A DNA stretch of 63,898 bases, filler included, from Folioceros fuciformis (lineage: Eukaryota), in NCBI GenBank assembly GCA_049999805.1. It is 6 parts of 5 records of this genome, joined end to end, with 100 filler letters (N's around TTAATTAATTAA, not from the genome) between each part and the next. Parts side by side here need not be neighbours in the genome. Positions count along the whole stretch, not along the records: positions 61,971 to 63,898 come from JBNGIO010005821.1; 5 more parts are not named here. One strand, 5' to 3'. This document shows positions 29,730 to 63,898 of this stretch, one piece after another. A program made the translations under genes and the position numbers. Within the stretch, counting starts at the first letter, position 1. Each line of letters opens with the position of its first letter. The notes beneath the pieces are model-generated. The model searched no databases, had not been told where the DNA came from, and saw nothing but the letters and a program-made list of their open reading frames with translations.

Positions 29730-29829
29730 NNNNNNNNNNNNNNNNNNNNNNNNNNNNNNNNNNNNNNNNNNNNTTAATTAATTAANNNNNNNNNNNNNNN
29801 NNNNNNNNNNNNNNNNNNNNNNNNNNNNN
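29730..29829. other. Artificial contig linker (N44-TTAATTAATTAA-N44); same linker at 43570-43669, 54014-54113, 58544-58643 and 61871-61970
   Basis: Identical 100-nt block with a six-frame stop palindrome in the middle. Confidence 0.97.
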
Positions 29830-35830: not shown

Positions 35831-35842
35831 TGGTATCAGAGC
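35831..35842 (+). promoter_or_regulatory. Primer binding site (tRNA-iMet)
   Basis: TGGTATCAGAGC 2 nt after the LTR CA. Confidence 0.92.
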
Positions 35843-35899
35843 AGGTTGTGGAGCAGGTTGTGGAGCAAGACCATGAAGATGGCCATCTAGGAGGAGGAG

Positions 35900-36151
35900 G
35901 GGTGCCACGCAGGCGCCACCTCAACGCCATGCGAGCGCCACCTAGGCACCATGTGAGAGCCACTTGGGTGCCATACGGGCGCCACCTAGGCACCATGTGA
36001 GCGCCAGCGGGCGCCACATCAGCGCCGCTAAGGCACTATGCGGGCGCCACGCAGGCGCGACTTGGGCACCACGCGGGCGCCACCCAAGCGCCACTAGAGC
36101 TCCACTTGGGCACCACTTGGACGCCACCTAGGCGCCACCGGGCACCACGTG
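35900..36151 (+). repeat. GC-rich ~11-bp degenerate repeat array in the element 5' region
   Basis: Repeated ggcgccacc/gggcaccac/gcgccacctagg units running into the N gap. Confidence 0.75.
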
Positions 36152-36251
36152 NNNNNNNNNNNNNNNNNNNNNNNNNNNNNNNNNNNNNNNNNNNNNNNNN
36201 NNNNNNNNNNNNNNNNNNNNNNNNNNNNNNNNNNNNNNNNNNNNNNNNNNN

Positions 36252-37250
36252 ACTCGATCCATGTCCCATGAACGGTTTCAATCGTCACTTAACTATCGTT
36301 TAGGGTTTCTTATAAACAACTAACCCTAGGCATATAACAATGACTAACTAAATAACGATTATTTCTCAACACCCCCTCTCATTGTATATACAGTCTATTA
36401 ACTGAACGGACAAAACAGCAAATGCTAAAAAAAACAAAACCGATTAGGGTATGATGGCTTCAGCTTCGGCGCTTAGCCTCTAGTCAGTCTCTCTGCTTCT
36501 AGCTCAGTCGCCGCCAGCTCCTTGGATTGATCACAGTACGCCTTCAGGCTACTCGATGGCTGGCTCCAGGTAGACTCCCATAGATCTAACAGCTTCTGAA
36601 GACAAGGCGCAGGCACAAGAAACCACAAACTCTCTTGATGTGGCTGTCCCTTAGTCTGGTGGTAAGGAATCTCTAGGTACGGCGCATGTTCTGCAAGTGT
36701 TCTAAGAATGCTCCTTCTTGCCCTGTTCATCCTAAGGAGAATATTCGCAAGATGTCTAATCGGGGAGCTGCGAGACACTGGCAAAAATGTCTTCAGGAGG
36801 CGAACGAGAGGGAGGCAAAGCTGATGCAGGAAACTGCTTCGCTCAAGTTGTCTCCTGCAGCAACCTCTAGACAGCCTACTTCCTTCAAGTCCTGCAACGT
36901 TAAAACACGAATAGTGGAGCTAACTGACGGACTGGAGAGGATAGTGCTTCCGGAAAACTATTAGCCCAGAGCATTCAACTTGCCCTTAGGCCACCTGTCT
37001 AAGATGAGACGACTGGTGACAGACGGGGAAGGTGCCAACGATCCTATGACACCTAAAATCTTCATTTGTCCTGTGTCAAACATAACCATGTACAGGCTGA
37101 ATTGGTGTAGGTGGGGAGGACTGGACGGGAACTTTGTGTCATACTATGGTAAGTCTACAGCATATCTGATATTTATACCCACTGTTGTTGTGGCTCGACC
37201 TACTGCTGACACACATCTCGGCTAACTTGCAGTGTCCAGGGAGAGAATGG
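36252..37250 (-). mobile_element. 3' region, PPT and partial LTR of a further LTR element (probable host of the 37251-43569 insertion)
   Basis: Minus-strand gagagggg PPT then TGTTGAGAA at ~36380-36362. Confidence 0.55.
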
Positions 37251-40200
37251 TGTTAAACTAGCGGAAGCTTGTTGTACAAACAATACAATGAATTGATAAA
37301 ACAAAAGAGAGTATATGAACAAAATTTGTGTCTCTTGAGTTAAGGTTGATAAACCTAAGTAACTTAAACTAGGTTGGGTTTAACTATAAAACCCTCAACA
37401 CCCCCACTTAAACCTAACTTGGTTAAAAGGACCTTCCTATAGAGTACAATTATGTAGGGGCATTATGCTCCACCCACTCTACTCACTACTTCATCGCACA
37501 TGGAACTCCTGATAGTGGCCTTCTTATGCTACGCCTGCTTTCTCTGCGGTAAAGCCACACAGCACAGAAAGATGAAGACACGCTCAAGAGCAGCGCCAAG
37601 CGAAGAGAGAGGTCGCGCCAACAGCTCGAGGTCATACCAGATGAAGAGAGCTAGCGGAGCTGGAGACCGCCCAGCGCGAGGAAGATCGACAACCAGGCGA
37701 GCCATCCAAGCTCCTGCCCCTGAAGCGATTCCTGTCGAGGATGCGCCGCCACCTGCTCTGCGCCCTGCTCATCTGAATTGGGACCCTATTCTGGAGCTCG
37801 AGTCCTCTGTATCCTTGTCTCCCTCAGTTGCCAGTATCACCATGATAGACACAAACACTAATAGCACTGACGAGGACGAGGCAAATAGTGAGCCTCGTCG
37901 TAGGAGCTGGTCATGGGATGCAACCCCCCACTGTCCAGAGTTTGTCCAACCATATGAAAACCACGATGGCAACCTTGGGAGAAGTGGAGAAGCTCTTGGA
38001 CCTGAAATAGGAGGAAGTATCTCGGCAGCAGGCTGCCTTGATAGCTAAGCTAGCTGCCCCGACAGATTCTGGTGACCAGAAGAAGATTGAACGTGAGAAG
38101 AATAGGGACTGCAGCGTATGTGCCTACAAAAGAAAACTATGCCCTCTCTGTGGGAAGAAGCTTTATCAGGTAAATCCCCTACTTGTTTTCGGTTGTCACC
38201 TGTCCATGATTTAATGCACTTGCCGCTTCATCCACTGAACAGGAAGACTGGACTGACCTAACAACACTCATCTGTGTATCTGGACAGGATGGATATGAGC
38301 CCAAAAATAATGAAGACTAAAGAGAAGAGTACACTGCACACAAGGTTCCACCTAAGTGTGTGCACAGAGTGTAATCAGCTAATAGGCTAGAGCTAGGTCC
38401 TTTCTGCTCAGACAATGCCCTTCATGCTACTGTTAATACACAAACTCACGCAGACCTAAGGCTGCAAGGTGCTGAAAGTGCTTAGACTTGGACAGTCCCT
38501 TTGTGAATATGTCTACTATGTTATCATGCGTGCAGACATACTCAACTTTTACTACACCCCTCTCGGCTACGTCCCTAATGTAGTGATGATATAGCTCAAT
38601 GTGTTTAGCACGAGCGTGAAACCTAGGGTTAGCCACGAGAGCAATTGCACTCATATTATCACAGTATAACCTTGTTGGGCCTTGTTGGTTTTGCTGTATA
38701 GACTCCAAGAACTGCCTCCTTACAGGCATCGGTTAAGGCCTTGTATTCCGCTTCAGTGTAGGAGAGAGCCAAGGAAGCTTGCTTTTTGCAACTCTAGCTA
38801 ACTATTCCAGATGACAGAAGAAAACAGTAAGCCGACAGGCTCTTCCTAGTGTCTGCATCAGAGGCCTAGTTAGCATCTGCGTAAGAGGTGAGTTCCAAGC
38901 ATCTGTTGCCACTCACTGAGTACTGTAAGCCATAAGTAAATGTGCCCTTTAGATAGCGGTAGATTCTCTTGACGACTGCCCAGAGAGCACGTCCAGGCTG
39001 TTTAAGAAACTGGGAGACCATACTAACTGAGTAGCTTATATCGGGGCACGTCCAATTGGCTAAGAAGATAAGACAACCCACTGCCTCGGCATATGGGATA
39101 GCACACATGTCCGCAAAATCCAGCTTGGTATGAGGAGACTGTTCTGCTGTCAGCTTTTCCCCCACTACTGAGGGAGTGGCCACTGGACGAGCATCCTGTA
39201 AGTTGAATCTCTTAAGGATCTCCTTCAGGTATTTAGTCTAGTGGAGAGTGATAGTCCCAACTGCCCTACTGCGAAGGATTTGAATGCCGAGACAAAACTG
39301 TAAGTCGCCTTGATCTATCATTTCGAACTCTTGACGAAGCATGTCCTTAACTTTTTCCAGCTGCACTGTGCTGTTACTTAACATAACACAGTCATCCACG
39401 TACAAAGCTAGAATTACAAAGAGGGCACCAGCAACTAGAAGGAAAACATTATTGTCAGCAGGAGATTGTAGAAACCCTAACTTCTTCAGGTACTTCATAA
39501 TCCTCCTGTACCAAGCCCTAGGTGACTGCTTTAGACCATAGATCGTCTTGAGGAGTTTACAGACCCTTTTAACCCATTTTTTGTGAATGAACCCTTCAGG
39601 CTGCTCCATATATAAAATCTCTCCGAGCTCACCATGAAGAAACGTTGTACAAACATCCATTTGCTGAACTTCCAGGTCGAACTCGGCTACAAGAGCAAGA
39701 AGGATTGGAATAGATGGAGGCTTCACTACTGGAGAAAAGGTATCACCATAGTCTAACCCTGGAATCTGACTGAAACCTCGTGCAACTAAGCGTGATTTGT
39801 ACCTAGCTGCAGTACCATCTGCTTTTAACTTAGTCTTGAATACCCATTTGCAACTAATAGGCTTTCTGCCAGGAGGAAGATCAACCAATTCCCAGGTGCC
39901 ATTTTTTATCAAAGACTGGTACTCATCATCAATGGAAGCTTTCCATTTATCACCATCAGGCCCATTGATAGCCTCTTCGTAAGTTTGAGGGTCAGGTCTT
40001 ATTGGTAGGATAAAATAGGTTTATTCATATTATATATCCAGCATTTNNNNNNNNNNCGCCTTGCCAGATCTCGATCTCCTTGCCTCCTCGATCCTAATCT
40101 TTAGGTCTGACGTCTGGCACATGTAGATTAGAGACCTGTACAAACTGTCTACGAAAATCCACTGCCTGGTAAGGAGGTTCTTCCCAATTCTCACGAGTGC

Positions 40201-43569: not shown

Positions 43570-43669
43570 NNNNNNNNNNNNNNNNNNNNNNNNNNNNNNN
43601 NNNNNNNNNNNNNTTAATTAATTAANNNNNNNNNNNNNNNNNNNNNNNNNNNNNNNNNNNNNNNNNNNN

Positions 43670-53865: not shown

Positions 53866-54113
53866 GGGACACAGAAAAAAAAAAAAAAGCACAATTCTTC
53901 GTTTTCATTAAATACCACAACTCTTCATTTTCATGTTCACACTCTGTAAATTTATCATAGGTTTCCGTTCCCTAGGGTTGGATCTTCACAGAATATTCTC
54001 TTTTTAGGGTTGGNNNNNNNNNNNNNNNNNNNNNNNNNNNNNNNNNNNNNNNNNNNNTTAATTAATTAANNNNNNNNNNNNNNNNNNNNNNNNNNNNNNN
54101 NNNNNNNNNNNNN

Positions 54114-54372
54114 CTCCAAGTGAGCGGGGAAAATCCTTCTCTTTTCCCCTGGAGATGTTCTAGTAGTGTGCCATTGGGGACAAACTCGAAGACGAGGAGA
54201 GCGATTTTGTTCTCCATGGAACAGCCCAACAGCTTCACCAAGTGCCTGTGATTCACTCCGTACAGAATCTTGACCTCGTTGAGAAACTACTGCTTGTACT
54301 CGAGGGAGCCCTCCCAATTGCCCTTCTTGATGGCTACTCGTGTGCCGTCAGCGAGCTTGCCAGTGTAGACTG
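54114..54372 (-). pseudogene. Receptor-like kinase domain fragment (subdomains II-V)
   Basis: VYTGKLADGTRVAIKK...*FLNEVKIL..VNHRHLVKLLGCSME...LLVFEFVPNGTLLEHL...LTW; internal stop; glycine loop missing. Confidence 0.9.
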
Positions 54373-55745
54373 AGGTTGCCATGTACTCTGCTGCAATGAC
54401 AGTAGGAGTGTCTCTCTTTCCCCCCTCTATGTCAGAAAGTTGAGAAGGCGCAACAGGCAATGGGGTAAATTGTCCAAGACTATCATGAGCTGTAGAATCC
54501 CCGGTGTGGTCTGTGACAGGGAATCTTGAGAGATGAAGGGTGAGGAAGTGGTGTCTCCCATTCTACTAGTAGGTTTGGTGACCTCATGAAAGACAACAAC
54601 CCAGTTAAAAACAATCTTCTTCATAGTAAGATTGTACAACCTATAGCCTTTCACTGCATCTGATTAACCAAGCAGGAGACACTTCGTTCCATTAGCATCC
54701 CATTTGGTCCAGCTCTCCTTCGGGATACAAGCATAGACCACAGAACCGAAAACCCTCAAATGTCAGATATCAGGTTTTATACCAGACCAAGCTTCCTCTA
54801 GTGTCATACTAGGTACAACCTTTGTCGAAACTCTATTCAACACATAGGTTGCTGTCATGACAGCCTCGCCCCAAAAGTTGACTTGGAAGTCGATGTGAAA
54901 CAACATACACTTGGCTGCTTCCACAAGGCTCCGTCTCTTCTGCTTCACAACTCCATTTTGCTGCGGGGTGTGCGGAATCGTGAGTTGCCGTTTGATGCCG
55001 TTGTCCTTACAAGAACTTTGGAACTGAGAAGAAACATATTCTCCTCCATTGTCGCTCCGAAGCATCTTAAGGTGTTCACCACGTTCGGTCTCCACCAGAG
55101 TCTTCCACTCCTTAAAAGTCTGGAACACCTGAGATTTTTCTTTCAAAAGGTAAGTCCACGTCTTCCTTGTAAAATCATCAACAAAGATGAGCATGTAGCG
55201 ATTCCCACCCTGTGTAGGGTTCCGCATGGGACCGCTCATGTCAGTGTGGACTAATTCCAACCCCTTCTGTGCACGATGTGTCCCATCTAACATCCTGGAC
55301 ACAACTGTGTTGCAGTAATGTCCTTTAAATCTAATCCTGTCACCATGTCATGAGTCATCATCTGCTTGAGTCTGTCCACTCCGATGTGGCCCAAACGCTG
55401 CTGCCATAAATCGACAGACTCTATGTGGTTGTGTGAACTAGCCAGGAACGTACAAGCTTGCTTTCTCATTGAACCACAAAGGTTGTACAGATTTCCCACA
55501 CGAACACCACGAGCAACCACGTGTGATGGCTCAGGTTGTACAAGTTGAATGCGACAGCCTGTGGAGTTGAAGACTATTTCATGACCTGCATCTGCAATCC
55601 GCGCAACAGAAAGAAGATTCCTCGCGAGATTAGGTACATGATGCGCATTCTCAATACGTGCAGGGTTACCGCCCTGCAACTGAATGTGTAAGACTCCTTT
55701 CCCCTCGATATCATGTAACGTATTGTCACCAAGTGCCACTGTATG
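54373..55745 (-). mobile_element. Ty1/copia internal fragment (late protease, GAG-pre-integrase, integrase), no LTRs
   Basis: VPNLARNLLSV, LWQQRLGH, LELVHTDMSGP, FVDDFTR, RSDNGGEY, TPQQNGV, KGYRLYN. Confidence 0.93.
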
Positions 55746-56345
55746 GCCCTATTTCCAGACAAATCCACCGATCCGTGCAGATTGGAGAAGATGTAAGTAC
55801 GAATATCTGGAGGAATGGGGCCAGACAAGTTGTTGTGAGAAAGGTCCAGGTGCGCCACACTCCCCAATCCGGGCGGGATGGGACCCTGTAGACCATTCCA
55901 TGATAGATCCAACAAATCAAGAAAGTAGAGCTTGAGAATCATGTCCGGTAGTTGTCCCACTATTTGATTCCGGGAAAGATTCACCTGCTTCAGAGCGGAC
56001 ATTTGGAAGAAGGAATGCATCAAGGCCGTGAGATTGTTTTTGACTCTGTCCAGGTGTTGCAGATTGGGTGCAGTGGGCACATCCCCACTAAGCCGGTTCC
56101 TGCCGATCGAGAGTTAAGTGAGGCGTGCAAGTCCCTCCAAACTGGGGATCCCTCCAACGAAGTAATTACCAGACAGGTCCAGGTTCTTGAGTTGGTTCAG
56201 ATTCCCCACTACCTGAGGGATGGTGCCTCCTCCGAAATTGTTTGCAAGAGAGACTACCCGCAACTCTGGCATCCAGCCGAGGCTTTGGATGAAAACCTCA
56301 CCCCATCCGTGTAAATGGAGCAAGAGGCGAGAGCGATGGATGTTC
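55746..56345 (-). pseudogene. Plant extracellular leucine-rich-repeat fragment (LRR-RLK/RLP ectodomain)
   Basis: LxxLxLxxNxL/FxGxIP repeats: LANNFGGGTIP, LDLSGNYFVGGIP, LDLSWNGLQGPIP, LDLSHNNLSGPIP; contains a stop at ~56114. Confidence 0.9.
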
Positions 56346-56439
56346 AGGCGGTGGATTTAGCATTACATTGAAGCGTAGAAGGTTTGCATCTTTGTGCAGA
56401 GTCAAGCATCACGAGCGAGCTGTGTGGTTGTAACCGTTC

Positions 56440-57122
56440 CACTTATGCTCGTTGGTATCCTAACCTAGGATGAACCGTGCCCTGGTAGGCCTAAATACTA
56501 TTATTATTAATACTCCCACTTAGTGTTTAGGCCTTAGGCTTGGATCCTTTGTCCTACATGTACTTCATTAACTCGGATAGCCTCTTCAGCCCCATGTTGG
56601 CTGAATGTTCTTGATGCTTCACGCTGCTAAGTGCCTTTGTCAGCACGTCTGCTGTCCGTTGAGCAGTAGAGTACCATGAATTTGTTGTCGTTTACAACCT
56701 GTCTTATGAAATGAAATTATACCTCTACGTGTTTGGTACGAGCATGGAACTTCGAGTTGTAAGTTAGTGAGATAGCACCTTGATTTTCGCAGTACAAGGG
56801 TCTTGGTATCCGTTGAGTTTCTGCTAACTCCGTGAGCTCATAGAGCTGCCAAAGTCCATCCTTGCATGCGTGGGATAAGGAGTAGTACTCGGCCTTTATT
56901 GAGTTGAGTGCGACTGTTTGCTGTTGTTTGCTGCTCCAACTTGTTACTATCCCACCAAGTAGGTAAACGTAGCTACTTATGCTCTTTCTGTTGTTTGCTG
57001 CTCTAACTTGTTATTGTCCCACCAAGTAGGTAAATGTAGCTACTTATGCTCTTTCTGTCGTTTGCTGCTCCAACTTGTTACTGTCCCACCAAGTAGGTAA
57101 ACGTAGCTACTTATGCTCTTTC
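56440..57122 (-). mobile_element. Ty1/copia 3' end (RNase H, PPT, partial LTR)
   Basis: SWSSKQQQTVALNS..AEYY, YCENQGAISL...FHARTKHVEV, ADVLTKAL; PPT aagtgggag at ~56521-56513. Includes a 67-bp x3 tandem duplication at 56926-57122. Confidence 0.85.
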
Positions 57123-57124
57123 TT

Positions 57125-58480
57125 AAAAGAATGCATTACTGTTTATTTTCTAAGTAGCCAGCAATGAGTTAATTAAATAAATATTAAAACTGAACCGACA
57201 TGTATGGAACGTCATACATGCCATAGATTCATACGGGCGCATAGAAATGACATGCCCTAACTATTGAACTGTCATCACGGTCAAGGGACGCGCTCAACTG
57301 TCACCGTCACTCACAAAAGGGAGTGCAATGACGCATAACTAATTCTACTCTCTCATGTTTTTCTTCATCCAATTCTACCTAGTACGTCCTGAAAATACCT
57401 GTATGGTATTAGAGCAGCAGCATTGAATGGATCCCGCTGCCCCTCCAATCTTCTACACAACATGCAGAAGTGATAAATGCATCAAGCATTTGCCACATGA
57501 AAATTTTAGGCTGCTGTTAGATGCACTCATAAAATCTCTTGCAAAGATTTTTGGGGAAATGCGTGATACCTTTCTTGCATCCGGTGGTGTTTTTCACTTC
57601 TCTGATTAGTGAACGCTGCCATGCCTAGGAGAAATGGAAGGAGACAGTTCCACAATGCTGTATATGCTCAAACCAAAAATGTCGAGCATTTTTCTGCCTT
57701 CAACTGTCAAACCTCTAACAGCTTGCAATAGGCCATTTAGGCACGGTAAGCAACCTAGTGTTGCCAAACCTGATCCTCTTAGACATATTCCAGCCCAAGC
57801 ACGTGAGATATTGTCGAATGCACAACAAATTTCACAAGAAACATTAAGAGCTTTGACTAAACCTAGGCTTACCTTGTGTAATCGATGTACAAACATTTTA
57901 ACACGTATCCATCACCATCTGACTTGCTGCTAATAGAAATCTATGACCTCATTAAAACGGTGTCTGTAGGCACTCGCACTAGGGTCTTAGATCTTGCTGA
58001 ACAGACATCCACAGGAGCCAAAATCAGCCCACATTCGAAGAATGCAGCAAGTCCTTAATGATGCTGATGACATAATTGCCTTAGAGGTTAGGGAAGACGG
58101 CCGAATTCACCACAGAAGGTTAACGACGTCTCTTGGTCATGTTTAACTAAGAACATTACCCTTTAAATGTCAGACAACAATAGAGGACAACAACCTAGAC
58201 CAAACCCACCTAGAAAGGATGGAGGCAGATCAACTGGACGAGGTCACAACCCTGTGAATGCGTCAGATAGTGTTTTAGAAGAACTGAACATTTCAGCATC
58301 CTTTGATCCTCTTGCCTCCTCACAGTCAAATTCGTCCACCTCTGCGTCAGCACTTGCTGCACGTCGAGCAAGATTAGCTCAAGCTCATGCAGCTGAACAA
58401 GCTAGTTTAGTAGCACAACTTGCACTAGCAACTCACGCAATAAGAAACACTCTTGCCACTCACATAGTGTGTCAATAGGA
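57125..58480 (+). mobile_element. Ty1/copia 5' end: LTR remnant, PBS, extra upstream ORF, gag N-terminus
   Basis: PBS-like TGGTATTAGAGC at 57404-57415; frameshifted upstream ORF ~57620-58130 homologous to 63070-63543; ORF 58167-58478 homologous to the gag N-terminus at 62960. Confidence 0.75.
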
Positions 58481-61197
58481 TCAACTCCAATCTACTTGCA
58501 AGTGTAGGAGAGGAGAGGAGAGAAGAGAGGGTGGTATTGGTGANNNNNNNNNNNNNNNNNNNNNNNNNNNNNNNNNNNNNNNNNNNNTTAATTAATTAAN
58601 NNNNNNNNNNNNNNNNNNNNNNNNNNNNNNNNNNNNNNNNNNNGCATTCATGTCATTGTCGTTGTCACCCTCAAGGTTAATGTCAAACTCTCCATCAGCG
58701 CTTGTCTCTTGATGAGTAAAATTAGCAGGTGGAGACGGGGGCGCATCCTCATCCCCGTCATGGCTGTGAGTGTCACTGTCACTGTCAGATGAGAAGTAAG
58801 TATCTGACATACTACTCTGATCACTACTCTCTATGGACGTCTTTGAGCTTGAGTCCAGGACATGATGCTCGTCAAAAATGGCATGCCGAGAGTAGCTCAT
58901 CTTCCGAGTTGCTGGATCAAAGACTTTGTAACCCTTGATCCCCTCCTGTATCCTACAAACAGCTGCTTGCTTGCTTTGTAATCCATCTTCCGTCTAGTCT
59001 GAGTAGGGACATGGATGTACACAGGTGAGCCGAAAACACGGAGGTGAGTTATGCGTGGTTTGTGACATGTCCAGCGCTGATATGGAGTCTCTCCTGTGAA
59101 TGCTGATGTGGGCCAGCCTGTTCTGGATGTAGGTAACAGCAGCTACTGCCTCAGCCCAGTACCCTCGAGACAGCTGAGCCTGATGAAGCATTGTCTTCGC
59201 ACATTCTTGAATGTAACGATTCTTCCTTTCTGAAAGAGGGTTTTGATCAGCAGAATAGGCCACGGTAAATTGTCTTGCTATGCCTTCCTTTTCACAGTAT
59301 GCTTTGAAGTCTCCAAGGGCCAGTTCACCCGCATTGTCACTTCTAAGAGTCTTCAATTTGTGGCCTGTGAAGCGCTCAGCATACTGTATGTATTTCACAA
59401 ACATGTCTAATGCCTGACTTTTATATGACAGATAGTATGTCAGGGTAAAGCAACTCCAATCATCAACAAAGACCATGAAGTACTTGGCCCCACCAAAGGA
59501 TGTGGTTGACATCGGGCCACACAGGTCAGTATGCACTACTTCTAAGAGCTATGTAGCTCGTGTGGCATCCTTATTGTCATGTGGCAGCTTATGATGCTTG
59601 CCATACATGCAAGATTCACAAAACACATCATCTGGGATTGACAAGTCTAGTTTATCTTTGTACAGTTCCGAGTTGGCCAAGCTTTTGAGTTGCTGAAAGT
59701 TTGTATGCCCAAGTCGGCAATGCCACAGGAAAGCTTCAGCTGATGCTGAGATTCTTCTCGAGACAAATGCTCGTGCACTTGATTTCCCTTCATTTACTCT
59801 CCGAAGAGCGATGTCCAGCTTGTACAGGTCGTGAACAGGTGAGCCTCGAGCAATTGGGCTGCCATCTCCCCCTTCATCACTTACAATGCAAGTCTCAGCC
59901 TGAAAACATACTCTGAACTTGTGCACCTTGCAGAGTTGTCGAACTGACACAAGGTTCTTCGCCATCTGTGGGACGTACAGCATGTCATCTAGAGTTAGAA
60001 TAGCGCCACTATGTAGTGTGACCTCGACAGCACCTGAACCTTCGATCTTCAGGCCGCTGTCGTCTCCCAACAGCACGTACTGCCGTGCAGGGCCTTGCTT
60101 GTAAGAAACAAATGCAGACTTGATGTTGCAGATGTGAGCAGAAGCCCCGGAGTCCAGATACATCGCGCACTTGTCGCCGGCCGAATGCACCAGGTATACA
60201 GCAAGGATGGATGGGCCCCGAGCCTTAGTAGCCGCATGTGCTTCTGGAGGTGCTGTACGGCGAGGTTCGCCCGCCTTCTTCTTGCGACACTCATGTTCGT
60301 GGTGTCCAGGGAAAAGACACCAGTTGCAACTTCCTTTCTTCGTTGAAGGTGAGCTCCCCCAGCCTCTGTTGTCTGCTGGCTTCTTGGATTGCCAAGGTGG
60401 TCGGCTGCCTTGAAAACGGCCTCGCCCTCTCCCTCTTGCGGCAAAGAGGACTTGATTGTTGCTGTTGCCCGATGAGGTAGCTCCTCGAGTAGACTTGTGG
60501 GAGGACTCCTCCTCCAGCAATGCGCCAATAATCTCTGACATTGTGATTGCAGGCGCTGTACCTGCAAGCGCTGCTGCTGCTGCTCGCAAGGTGGCGTTTT
60601 GCGTACTTACAAAAGTTCTGGAGCGTTCTGGGAGGGACATGAGGAGGGCAACAGCAGCTTGGAGCTCCGAGACCTTTGTGCCGGCCGACGCCAGCCGTTG
60701 CCTCAAGTGGCGAAACTGCTGGATTTGTTGTTCAACCGACTGCGACTCCTTCATGTGCAGGTTCCAGAAAAGATGGCTGGCTGAAACAAGCGATGTTGAG
60801 TTTGTTGTTGCGAAAACTTGATGGAGGGACGCCCAAGCCTGTGCTGTGGTCTCAGCGTCGTCGACATGGTGCATCATCGAGCTGTCCAGCGCTGACTGGA
60901 GTAGAGCTCGTGCACGCAGGTCGGTTTTCTCCCATCTTGCGATGGCGTCAGGGGAAGCCGTTGCGGCAGCAGGCTTGGCTGTTGCGCCAGAAGCCACATC
61001 CCACAAGTCCTCTAGTTGGAGAAGAGTCTTCACTCTCTGCATCCAGACATCATATCTGAAGCCGTCGAACCAATCTCGATCCTTGAAGTCAAACCTTATG
61101 TTTGGTACCGGCGTCGCCATAACTTTGACTTGCTTCTGCAACTTTTGCTTCCGCTCTGGTGAAGCAGACCAGGCCTTCCTCCTTGCACGAGGATCTT

Positions 61198-61611
61198 TTA
61201 CAGGTTCGCTCCCTGTTGGCTCTTGTGACTTCCCTCTACGCCCTCTAGAAAACATTCGCCTGTGGCCTCCACATACTGCTCCAGCAAAATCTCTTTGGAT
61301 GCGTTTACTGACTGCTGGTCTTTGCGCAACTGTGAGGCTTGGTGAGACAAGTTAGCAAGAGCTTGATGCGCTCTTGAGACGGAGATCTTGAGATCGTTGA
61401 CAGAATCCAGGAGATCTGGCAGCCGAGTTCTACAGTAGGAGGACAGGGAATCGATGAGAGATAGACCATCCGACTCGTAATGTGAGGGATAATGGAAAGA
61501 GGTTGGTCTTGTGTGTGCACAGTTATCGCAGCAGAGTGGAGGTGTTGAGTTTCTAACAAATCTGTGCTGTGGTGCATGCCAGTGAGAACCTTGGCACCTT
61601 CTCTGAGGCAT
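61198..61611 (-). CDS. Extra upstream ORF of copia element (CxxC plus coiled-coil-like tail), unknown function
   Basis: ATG-initiated 137 aa between PBS and gag, overlapping the gag start by 58 nt; MPQRR start, CDNCAHT. Confidence 0.5.
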   Translation of the reverse strand: MPQRRCQGSHWHAPQHRFVRNSTPPLCCDNCAHTRPTSFHYPSHYESDGLSLIDSLSSYCRTRLPDLLDSVNDLKISVSRAHQALANLSHQASQLRKDQQSVNASKEILLEQYVEATGECFLEGVEGSHKSQQGANL

Positions 61612-61731
61612 TGGCGCCCTTCAGAGATCAAGACCTGGTGCTTCGATTTCCCAAAACTCGCGCTATCATCCTCATGGGGACTATGAGCGTAGGGCGATCG
61701 CCTGGTGTGTGCACAGTGCTAGAAAAACATG

Positions 61732-61743
61732 GCTCTGATACCA
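61732..61743 (-). promoter_or_regulatory. Primer binding site (tRNA-iMet)
   Basis: gctctgatacca on + strand, directly abutting the LTR end (tgttg...). Confidence 0.92.
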
Positions 61744-63069
61744 TGTTGCGGCATAGACTAGGATCGACTAGCGCTAGAGACGAGGCGCGTGAGAGGAAAG
61801 AAAAGGTATCTAATGCGTTGTGTACCTTTTGTGGTCGCGTGAACAAGAGTTCGTTATGGCAGTTGGCCATNNNNNNNNNNNNNNNNNNNNNNNNNNNNNN
61901 NNNNNNNNNNNNNNTTAATTAATTAANNNNNNNNNNNNNNNNNNNNNNNNNNNNNNNNNNNNNNNNNNNNTCGTGGTGGCTGCCTTTTTGAGCCTCTATT
62001 CGAAAAGAGAACTCGATTTGAGGACTCTCCTCTGGAGGAGGTACCACCCTTGCTTGCTATCCTCGTGGATTCTTCCTCCAGGAGGGCTCCAATCAGGTCT
62101 GAGAGGGAAACTGCAGGTGTCTGGCCTGCTGGTGTGGCCTGGGCCACATTCCGCATATGTGTGCAGTGATTGCTCACAAAGACTCGATAGCTATCAGGCA
62201 GGGATAGGAGAAGGGCCACAGCAGCCTGCATCTCAGTGGTTGCAGTCCCACTTGAGGTAAGCTTAGACCTCAACATTCTGAACTTGATGACGTGCTGCTC
62301 CACTGACTCGTGCTCTTTCATCTTGCAGTTGTAGAAGGCACGAGTTGCACTCACCATTGATGATCCATTCGACACTCTGTAAATTTGGTTCAGGGAGTCC
62401 CAAACATCCTTTGTTGTGTCAGCATCTTGAGTATGGTGCATCATTGACCCGTCGAGAGCTGACTGAATGATGCCCAAGGCTCGAAGATCTGATTTTGCCC
62501 AAGCGGCTATATCAGCCTGGGCTGCTCCTTGCGGAGGCTTGGGCACTGTGCCAGTCACGATGCCCCATAGGTCGTGCTCTCTCAAGATGGTCTGTACTCT
62601 GAGAGCCCAGATGTCAAACTGGGTGCCATTGAACCTATCTCTCTCCTTAAAGTCTATTTTCACATTTGTGACTGTGGTTGTATTGTTTGTGACAGTCTGC
62701 GGTGGCAGATTTGCCATGTTTCCAATAGCTTGATGTGAAAGGGCTGATCCTGCTTGTGCTACAGCATACGCCTGAGCTAGCTGCGCAACGGATACAGCAT
62801 GCAAGCTTGTGCTTGACTGTGAGGAGGCAGTCTCCTGATTTAGGCCAAGTGGGTCAACTAGGTAAGGATCTGGATTTGTATTTTCACCCCTTCCTGTATC
62901 ACGACCTCTACGCCTGCCTCTTGGGTTTCTGATACCCCTACCATGGTTGCTATTGGACATGAGCTAGCTTTAGGAAGATGCCTGATCATGGGTGAGCGAG
63001 GAGTAGATTCTCGTTCCCATGATTAAAGGTTACAGACTGAGGCTGATTTATCTCCACGTTTCCCACAGG

Positions 63070-63543
63070 TTAGGCCTGGTTGTTATGCAGATTTGTGAAA
63101 ATAGGTAGCCTGGTTAGCAATTCGATCTGCTGTGTGAGGGTCACTATCTGTCTATGGGAGTTTATGACCCTGTCTGTCAAGTCACACACCTGTTGCCTAT
63201 GCCTCTCTGATTCTGACCTGAAACTTGTGTATAACTGCTGAAGGGAAAGGTCAGGCTTGGGAGGATATGTGTTTGCACAAATTTTGCAGGTGGGGATCTC
63301 GTTTGCTTTCTGTGCACTAATTGCAAGTGCTCGATTTATCTCCTTGCGAATTTGATTCCTAAGACTCGCTAAGGGATCTGGCTGTACAGGTTTCTGAAAA
63401 AGACTGCTCTGCCTTTGTGATGCAGACCTGGGAGACAAATTAAAAAGGTGTTGAAGATTTTTATGTTGCTCTTCTACACTATGTCCAGGACTGCATGCAA
63501 ACGAATCTAGGGGTATTTTACCCTTCCCACGTGCTCTCGGCAT
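63070..63543 (-). CDS. Extra upstream ORF of copia element (CxxC plus coiled-coil-like tail), unknown function
   Basis: Intact 157-aa ATG ORF between PBS and gag; homologous to ~57620-58130. Confidence 0.65.
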   Translation of the reverse strand: MPRARGKGKIPLDSFACSPGHSVEEQHKNLQHLFNLSPRSASQRQSSLFQKPVQPDPLASLRNQIRKEINRALAISAQKANEIPTCKICANTYPPKPDLSLQQLYTSFRSESERHRQQVCDLTDRVINSHRQIVTLTQQIELLTRLPIFTNLHNNQA

Positions 63544-63839
63544 CCCTACTGTCTACAAATAGCAATGAAAGACTGTTTCTGCTAGAACCATGTGCCCCAT
63601 GTCCTCTGTACTAACCAGCGCTGCTCTAATTGCAGAGATTACACAACGGAATTGCTCGTACGACAATCTCATGATGTAAGTTTTGCACTGCTTAGATAAC
63701 GACAATGGGAAATCCATGTTCTAATTAGAAAATTTTGTGTGCAAGGTATTAAATTTGTCCATTTGATTCCTGTTCAGGAACCAGGAAGTGCTACGCCTCA
63801 ACAGAGGGCGTATTGGCAATTTTTAACACCCAAAACATG

Positions 63840-63851
63840 GCTCTGATACCA
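63840..63851 (-). promoter_or_regulatory. Primer binding site (tRNA-iMet)
   Basis: gctctgatacca on + strand, directly abutting the LTR end (tgtaa...). Confidence 0.92.
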
Positions 63852-63898
63852 TGTAAAAATTCTAGATTGAGATCGATAGATGCACACAAAATTGCAGA

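Follow-up and report, generated by a model that had tools for sequence, protein, structure and literature searches.

Plant pararetroviruses such as CaMV and RTBV carry small upstream proteins on a polycistronic pregenomic RNA with a structured leader, along which translation proceeds by reinitiation, leaky scanning or shunting. The first cistron of LINE-1 elements encodes ORF1p, a cis-acting RNA-binding helper in which a disordered basic N-terminus is followed by a long helix. Among plant LTR retrotransposons, the text of Neumann et al. (2019) describes 5' ORFs as typical of the Ogre, Tat and Athila gypsy elements, and copia elements as structurally uniform with one gag-pol frame, the 3' forward ORF of SIRE being the only extra ORF that characterises a copia lineage. 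The extra ORFs given there for 582 copia elements are those of at least 250 codons, and in the text of Vicient and Casacuberta (2020) it is mainly 3' ORFs that are discussed. The background given in the first-pass annotation of the DNA studied here, namely that additional ORFs of copia elements usually lie 3' as in SIRE, agrees with what Neumann et al. (2019) state in their text.

We describe a pair of small ORFs located in the 5' leader of Ty1/copia elements from Folioceros fuciformis, which represents a new variation on the known theme of extra ORFs in plant LTR retrotransposons. A search of full-text articles, supplements aside, did not bring up a pair of conserved 5' ORFs in copia elements; the per-element eORF lists in the supplements of Neumann et al. 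(2019) could contain 5' eORFs of such elements. One member of the pair, ORF A, probably is, or until recently was, a genuine coding gene with an accessory role in a single Ty1/copia lineage, as judged from sequence comparison of two elements with demonstrable homologs and of read contigs.

Three copia fragments and their leaders

The window, which is the whole stretch of 63,898 nt that was analysed, contains N44-TTAATTAATTAA-N44 blocks at 29730-29829, 43570-43669, 54014-54113, 58544-58643 and 61871-61970, each with a six-frame stop linker. Because of these linkers its final 10 kb must be read as chained short contigs and not as one locus, and since unplaced pieces were joined artificially to make up the window, adjacency across the blocks is meaningless. 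The 5' portions of Ty1/copia elements are found on three contigs of the final 10 kb:

61971-63898, minus strand: element A, a 5' fragment truncated at 61971 and where the window ends
within 54114-58543, plus strand: element B, a 5' fragment cut at 58543
58644-61870, minus strand: element C, the third copia element

Copia-type gag (Pfam PF14223) was recognised in A with an E-value of 1.2e-30 and in C with one of 1.3e-27, and the gag cores of C and A are 50% identical over 227 amino acids (E 1e-66); the pol of element C is represented in its contig by the protease barrel and GAG-pre-integrase only. Elements A and C have the same primer binding site (PBS), TGGTATCAGAGC, which we take to be of the full tRNA-iMet 3'-end type. 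In element A it immediately follows the terminal CA of the LTR, as is characteristic of Ty1/copia. A tRNA-iMet-type PBS in copia elements is in line with the text of Neumann et al. (2019). The following features were identified in element A:

63852..63898, minus strand: end of the 5' LTR, final 47 nt, ending in ...TTTTTACA, with the remainder beyond the window
63840..63851, minus strand: PBS, TGGTATCAGAGC, located by pattern scan and directly following the LTR ...ACA at 63852
between PBS and ORF1, minus strand: two mini-ORFs of 15 and 13 codons, from the listing of ATGs
63553..63717, minus strand: ORF1, 54 aa, with ATG context aacATGg and a TAG stop followed 9 nt later by the ATG of ORF A
63070..63543, minus strand: ORF A, 157 aa, an ATG-to-stop frame starting MPRARGKGK
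62970..63020, minus strand: mini-ORF of 16 codons within the 109-nt stretch that separates ORF A from gag, ending in a stop 9 nt short of the gag ATG
61971..62960, minus strand: gag, 330 codons from the ATG at 62960, open to the contig end, with Pfam matches PF14223 and PF13961

ORF A is thus situated between the PBS and the copia gag of element A. The intact ORF of 157 amino acids that the first-pass annotation had placed there is confirmed by the ORF listing, the PBS scan and the Pfam match of gag, all of which agree, with the correction that its strand is minus. When the 879-nt leader of A was shuffled with its dinucleotides preserved, 7 of 5000 shuffles contained a sense ATG-initiated ORF of at least 157 amino acids (p ~0.0014). 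A single ATG occurs in the 520 nt that follow the ORF A start (63021-63540, minus strand) against 6.8 +/- 2.0 expected, with 3 of 2000 shuffles as low; this depletion is not significant when the codon content is kept (429 of 5000), and it is absent in elements B and C.

Element B has the same order of PBS, ORF1, ORF A homolog and gag as element A, and its features are as follows:

57404..57415, plus strand: PBS, TGGTATTAGAGC, located by pattern scan and by sequence
57427..57609, plus strand: ORF1, 60 aa, homolog of the ORF1 of A, ending ...VFHFSD-TAG
57621..58055, plus strand: broken ORF A homolog, opening with MPRRNG 11 nt past the ORF1 stop and spread over three frames with stops
58167..58478, plus strand: gag N-terminus, 103 codons followed by a stop, with the contig ending at 58543

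All the motif pairs quoted by the first-pass annotation, which had proposed a frameshifted homolog in a second element, were retrieved in collinear order over at least three frames of 57621-58055 (plus strand). Gag is broken in element B, as is the ORF A homolog. The contig that carries element B further contains a unit of approximately 60 nt repeated three times in tandem at 56900-57130 (plus strand), just upstream of the PBS and presumably within the 5' LTR, as well as copia integrase fragments at 54763-55748 (minus strand) and, at 55574-56323 (minus strand), a frame that on visual inspection encodes leucine-rich repeats of the kind found in plant receptors.

Elsewhere in the window, a perfect copia PBS at 35831-35842 (plus strand) is followed by a long leader interrupted by an N100 gap; the region 35831-38048 (plus strand) includes a 92-aa ORF at 36686-36964 and a basic, Ser-rich frame of 182 aa at 37500-38048. 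No relation of this region to ORF A or to the gag of A could be demonstrated, the score of ORF A against the leader at 36252-37650 being reached by 4 of 60 shuffles, and no relative of ORF A was demonstrable at the PBS-like sites at 35831 (plus strand) and 4563 (minus strand). A search of 54114-63898 against Rfam gave zero matches at E <= 0.1.

Amino-acid conservation of the leader ORFs

The similarity between ORF A and the leader of B amounts to 12/34, 16/56 and 13/35 identical amino acids in three collinear pieces, or 41/125 overall. A tblastn search with ORF A recovered a single piece of B (57900-58004, E 0.007), and a frameshift-tolerant alignment of the protein to the DNA of B scored 95 against 40.0 +/- 6.7 for shuffled queries, none of 200 reaching the observed value. 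The three sense frames of the ORF region of A were then translated and each was aligned to the B leader, with 60 shuffles per frame. The ORF A frame gave a z-score of 10.0, compared with -2.1 and 0.1 for the two other frames; the N-terminus of gag, which served as positive control, gave 11.7 in frame and 1.6 and 4.8 out of frame.

At the nucleotide level, the local similarity between A and B over ORF A was reached by 78 of 300 dinucleotide shuffles, and the corresponding counts were 115/300 for ORF1, 129/300 for the spacer between ORF A and gag and 133/300 for the leader preceding ORF1. The permissive scoring of this test yields high shuffle scores and hence a low sensitivity, but gag was nonetheless detected as significant (0/300). 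Identity at the three codon positions was 0.44/0.58/0.31 for ORF A against B, with third positions near random, and 0.48/0.65/0.41 for the gag N-terminus. Over 144 aligned codons, a total that takes in a 19-codon fourth piece overlapping the third on ORF A and not collinear with the others, pS was 0.87, that is saturated, and pN was 0.47; the three collinear pieces gave pS of 0.75-1.02 and pN of 0.44-0.51. These values are descriptive only, because an alignment guided by amino acids biases pN downward and dS is saturated, and it is therefore the frame test rather than pN/pS that constitutes the coding evidence from the A-B comparison. A global nucleotide alignment of A and B gave 0.65/0.54/0.63 by codon position, without a third-position effect, and this weighs little since the alignment is gap-rich and has no random baseline.

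The protein-level conservation between diverged copies that had been claimed from a few motifs is thereby upheld, by a frame-specific z-score, by the absence of a nucleotide signal and by third positions near random, all in a pattern like that of the gag N-terminus. These comparisons show ORF A, together with ORF1, to have been under apparent constraint at the amino-acid level during the time in which the lineages of A and B diverged to saturation of silent sites.

ORF1, with 54 amino acids in A and 60 in B, is a second conserved small ORF of the leader, new here and absent from the first-pass annotation. Its A-B protein alignment score was reached by 1 of 1000 shuffles, and the frame test gave a z-score of 5.9 in frame as opposed to -1.3 and 0.9. 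The TAG that terminates it occupies a homologous place in the two elements (...VFHCYL-TAG in A and ...VFHFSD-TAG in B, or ...VFH-x3-TAG), and in B a TAG-TGA double stop closes the frame. In element A, ORF1 and ORF A share one reading frame and are separated by a TAG and three further codons, and the close spacing of 9 nt in A and 11 nt in B from the ORF1 stop to the ORF A start is kept in both. The homologous TAG and the double stop of B suggest that the two-cistron layout is ancestral and not the product of a recent nonsense mutation, and read-through of the ORF1 stop is, on present sequences, not supported by element B.

Relatives were retrieved among contigs assembled from two DNA runs of one sample, possibly the source of the assembly, in which 160 (run X1) and 141 (run X2) contigs matched at 80% identity or more. 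The variants listed from them comprise 12 of 22 indels and 40 of 654 substitutions. One relative of 1836 nt (X1 record 3; X2 record 7 seems to represent this element too) differs from the gag of A at 68 positions over 62203-62703 and at 25 over 62808-62964. It then has 152 unlike letters in place of 151 over 62964-63116, and matches 63116-63543 with 89 differences, or 79% identity over 428 nt, with no net indel among the 12 of 22 indels listed. Within this ORF A block the listed indels are a 1-base loss and a 1-base gain located 2 bases apart, and the match to the window ends exactly upstream of the ORF A ATG at 63543. A further pair of indels in ORF A, at 63329/63334 in one X2 contig, is compensated too among those listed. 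The read relative fits a constrained coding block with a boundary at the start codon, which would lie amid leader sequence that evolves more freely. A run that we guessed to be RNA (X4) provided three contigs, at less than 90% identity and covering gag only. In a further run (X3), the differences over 61971-63898 are nearly all of the kinds C>T (180) and G>A (94) that a bisulfite-converted library would show, so that the cytosine methylation of element A could be read from that run.

The leader of element C, too, contains an ORF, located where ORF A lies in element A:

61198..61611, minus strand: leader ORF of C, 137 aa, at the position of ORF A and overlapping the gag-pol start in another frame
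59549..61255, minus strand: gag-pol start of C, with gag, protease barrel and GAG-pre-integrase according to Pfam

A length of 137 codons was matched by 31 of 5000 shuffles. The C leader ORF starts with MPQRRC and contains CDNC followed by a DGLSL-type motif, and its AlphaFold2 model consists of 48 disordered residues and a single long helix (49-133), so that it resembles ORF A in predicted architecture as well as in position. BLASTP gave no match between the C leader ORF and ORF A, and the score of their pairwise alignment was reached by 109 of 1000 shuffles. Frameshift-tolerant alignments gave z-scores of -0.8 and 0.3 against A and of 2.6 against the B leader (2 of 100 shuffles), and when a profile built from A and the B pieces was used, 22 of 2000 shuffles reached the score. 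The similarity to ORF A is not significant, and this same-position ORF is possibly a fast-evolved ortholog of ORF A. It overlaps the open gag-pol frame by approximately 150 nt (61201-61351, minus strand) with a -1 offset, a layout that would permit fusion by frameshifting; a recoding link to gag is thus conceivable, in element C only.

The predicted ORF A product and competing readings

The ORF A protein has a pI of 9.9, with 21 K+R and 12 D+E, and no internal Met. Its cysteines are found at positions 17, 86, 89 and 120, those at 86-89 forming the CxxC. Of a retroviral-type CCHC zinc knuckle (C-x2-C-x4-H-x4-C), ORF A contains only the C-x2-C at 86-89, and no zf-CCHC family of Pfam was matched. 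A His...His...CxxC metal site was also considered, and was rejected because the His positions are misaligned across A, B and C. AlphaFold2 predicted a disordered basic start, helices at 23-34, 59-82 and 99-145, and a loop bearing the CxxC. The model has a mean pLDDT of 69 and a pTM of 0.32 from an alignment of four rows, and the helices alone are trustworthy, those at 59-82 and 99-145 having block-mean pLDDT values of 87-94. The conserved motifs PDPL and CxxC-NTYP fall in predicted loops. From this we infer a small, basic and mostly helical product, with a predicted disordered Arg/Lys-rich start, a conserved CxxC-NTYP loop and a helix of about 47 residues. The basic N-terminus, now predicted to be disordered, and the CxxC, now placed in a loop, had both figured in the first-pass annotation; for the coiled coil proposed along with them, the model predicts long helices only.

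Searches with ORF A did not bring out any homolog. The best Pfam match had an E-value of 0.088, below every curated cut-off, and ORF A did not match PF10536, PF03078 or PF04195 (Ogre ORF1/plant mobile domain, Athila ORF-1 and Transposase_28). A word-indexed search of 5.8 billion proteins provided 20 candidates, none of which scored, and phmmer against 1.84 billion representatives gave 0 matches at E <= 0.001. The best E-value in a sequence search of the PDB was 0.96, Foldseek against the PDB found generic long-helix proteins only and none at E <= 0.001, and the best score in the ESM Atlas was 0.89, under the 0.9 level used for leads. Viral contigs contained nothing resembling ORF A and nothing resembling gag. 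A metagenome locus (L001) with 27% identity and an E-value of 5e-6 among candidates only was discarded because its resemblance was attributed to chance, a single exact octapeptide having seeded the match; its frame encodes a 555-aa bacterial-looking protein of sensor-kinase type, in which we recognised by eye what we take to be H-box and G2-box-like motifs. Given that the gag of A itself has a single relative in the same database (P0001, 51% identity) and none among longer proteins, the empty searches say little about the distribution of ORF A.

Structured leaders are expected in retroelements. The leader of A (62950-63860, minus strand; 911 nt) has a predicted folding energy of -264 kcal/mol, where shuffles give -229 +/- 6 (z-score of -5.6, with 0 of 20 as good), compared with z-scores of -1.3 for a gag segment of equal length (2 of 20) and of -2.1 for the B leader. 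In the minimum-energy fold, the stretch right after the PBS pairs with the stretch right before the gag ATG. At least five ATG-ORFs lie ahead of gag in element A, which makes a simple scanning model awkward. Start codon contexts in A are strong for ORF1 (aacATGg), intermediate for ORF A (gggATGc) and weak for gag (ctcATGt), and in both A and B the starts of ORF A and gag are located 9-16 nt past the preceding stop.

Several readings of the leader can be weighed against a protein-coding ORF A. In one of them, the structured leader would carry long upstream ORFs of a regulatory kind, with selection acting on the control of gag translation or on RNA structure for packaging and priming, and with functionless peptides. 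This would account for the folding of the A leader relative to the gag segment and the B leader, for the mini-ORFs and short stop-to-ATG spacings that flank the ORFs, and for the weak context of the gag ATG. We nevertheless regard this explanation as improbable. Under a constraint on RNA structure or on position only, amino-acid similarity would not be retained in a single frame when nucleotide similarity is lost, and PDPL and CxxC-NTYP are conserved in predicted loops. Regulatory upstream ORFs are also typically far shorter than 157 codons. The folding of the A leader points to a function at the RNA level as well, but cannot alone explain a conservation of amino acids that is specific to the frame. 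A chance open frame in a neutral leader, its resemblance to B being a residue of common descent, is the least probable of the readings considered: element B is broken, database searches returned no homologs and the gap-rich global alignment, for which there is no baseline, lacks a third-position effect, but the similarity is limited to the ORF frame with a z-score of 10 and has no nucleotide-level counterpart, the length of the ORF is rarely reached in shuffles (p ~0.0014), and the frame is preserved in a relative with 21% divergence, as far as the listed indels go.

ORF A, perhaps with ORF1, might also serve as an upstream exon or as an alternative N-terminal extension of Gag produced by splicing or recoding, comparable to the glyco-Gag of gammaretroviruses. 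Such an arrangement would be helped by the shared frame of ORF1 and ORF A in element A, where a single TAG separates them, by the overlap of the C leader ORF with the open gag-pol frame at a -1 offset, and by candidate GT and AG sites seen in the leader by eye. It has to contend with the fact that 109 nt lie between the end of ORF A and the gag ATG, with the two in different frames, and that gag starts at a homologous Met in A (MSNSN) and B (MSDNN). In-frame stops close the gag frame two codons upstream of this Met in A and one codon upstream in B, where the codon immediately before the gag ATG is a TAA and ORF1 already terminates in TAG-TGA. An in-frame extension of gag, which the first-pass annotation had named as a finding that would overturn its proposal, is thus not what the two elements contain, since the stop directly before the gag ATG in both of them argues against ORF A being part of gag; we consider the spliced or recoded version of this explanation to be quite improbable.

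If ORF A is indeed coding, the genomic RNA would be ordered as LTR, PBS, ORF1 (~55-60 aa), ORF A (~157 aa) and gag-pol, and the ORF A protein would be made as an upstream cistron of the full-length element RNA. Ribosomes could get to ORF A and then to gag by reinitiation or leaky scanning, which is suggested by starts only 9-16 nt past the preceding stops. The protein might bind the RNA of its own element, or Gag, and assist as an oligomer in packaging, in chaperoning or in the handling of RNA; this cis-acting function is proposed only from its charge, from the layout of a disordered segment plus a long helix and from the position of the gene. For an ORF A that is coding, this combination of upstream cistron, RNA- or Gag-binding helper and reinitiation is a tentative proposal with clearly less than even chances. 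A role as silencing suppressor is conceivable instead, as is a purely regulatory one, and element A may itself be a degenerate copy. The broader view in which a polycistronic copia RNA has both ORF1 and ORF A translated ahead of gag, with ORF A as an accessory factor (an RNA-binding helper or a silencing suppressor) and element C carrying its fast-evolved ortholog, we consider unlikely in its entirety.

Comparison with described retroelements

In the classification given in the text of Neumann et al. (2019), ORF A has the features of an eORF-5'F, as it is forward, separate and upstream of the polyprotein; its length of 157 codons, or 215 if ORF1 is added by reading through the TAG, lies below the 250 codons used in that definition. 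With such a threshold ORF A would be missed. If ORF A is a genuine gene, copia lineages would also acquire accessory genes, here as a pair of small genes in the 5' leader, and ORF surveys with a threshold of 250 codons would overlook such small genes. ORF A would then offer a concrete candidate for a helper or counter-defence protein encoded by a transposon, and one would have to ask how gag comes to be translated from a position downstream of two cistrons and of a highly structured leader.

The 5' forward ORF of Ogre elements (Ty3/gypsy) is, as far as the text of Neumann et al. (2019) describes it, similarly a lineage-specific sense ORF without similarity to host genes, located between the LTR/PBS and gag. 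ORF A differs from it in belonging to Ty1/copia, in being far shorter and devoid of a plant mobile domain or other Pfam family, and in being preceded by the conserved ORF1. With the env-like ORF of SIRE, ORF A has in common that it is a fast-evolving accessory ORF of copia elements without conserved domains, in the terms of the same text (Neumann et al. 2019), but the SIRE ORF is long and lies 3' of pol whereas ORF A is short and lies 5' of gag.

Plant pararetroviruses have small basic or coiled-coil-type proteins ahead of their capsid gene, and the cistrons spaced 9-16 nt apart in a structured leader, as well as the few internal ATGs in the ORF A of copy A (1 against 6.8 +/- 2.0), recall their organisation. 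ORF A differs in having no sequence or fold similarity to caulimovirid proteins, and the depletion of ATGs is absent in B and C. Finally, LINE-1 ORF1p belongs to another class of elements, and ORF A has neither homology to it nor an RRM/CTD domain; what both would have in common is a disordered basic start followed by a long helix, and the model of a cis-acting RNA-binding helper proposed above for ORF A is borrowed by analogy from ORF1p.
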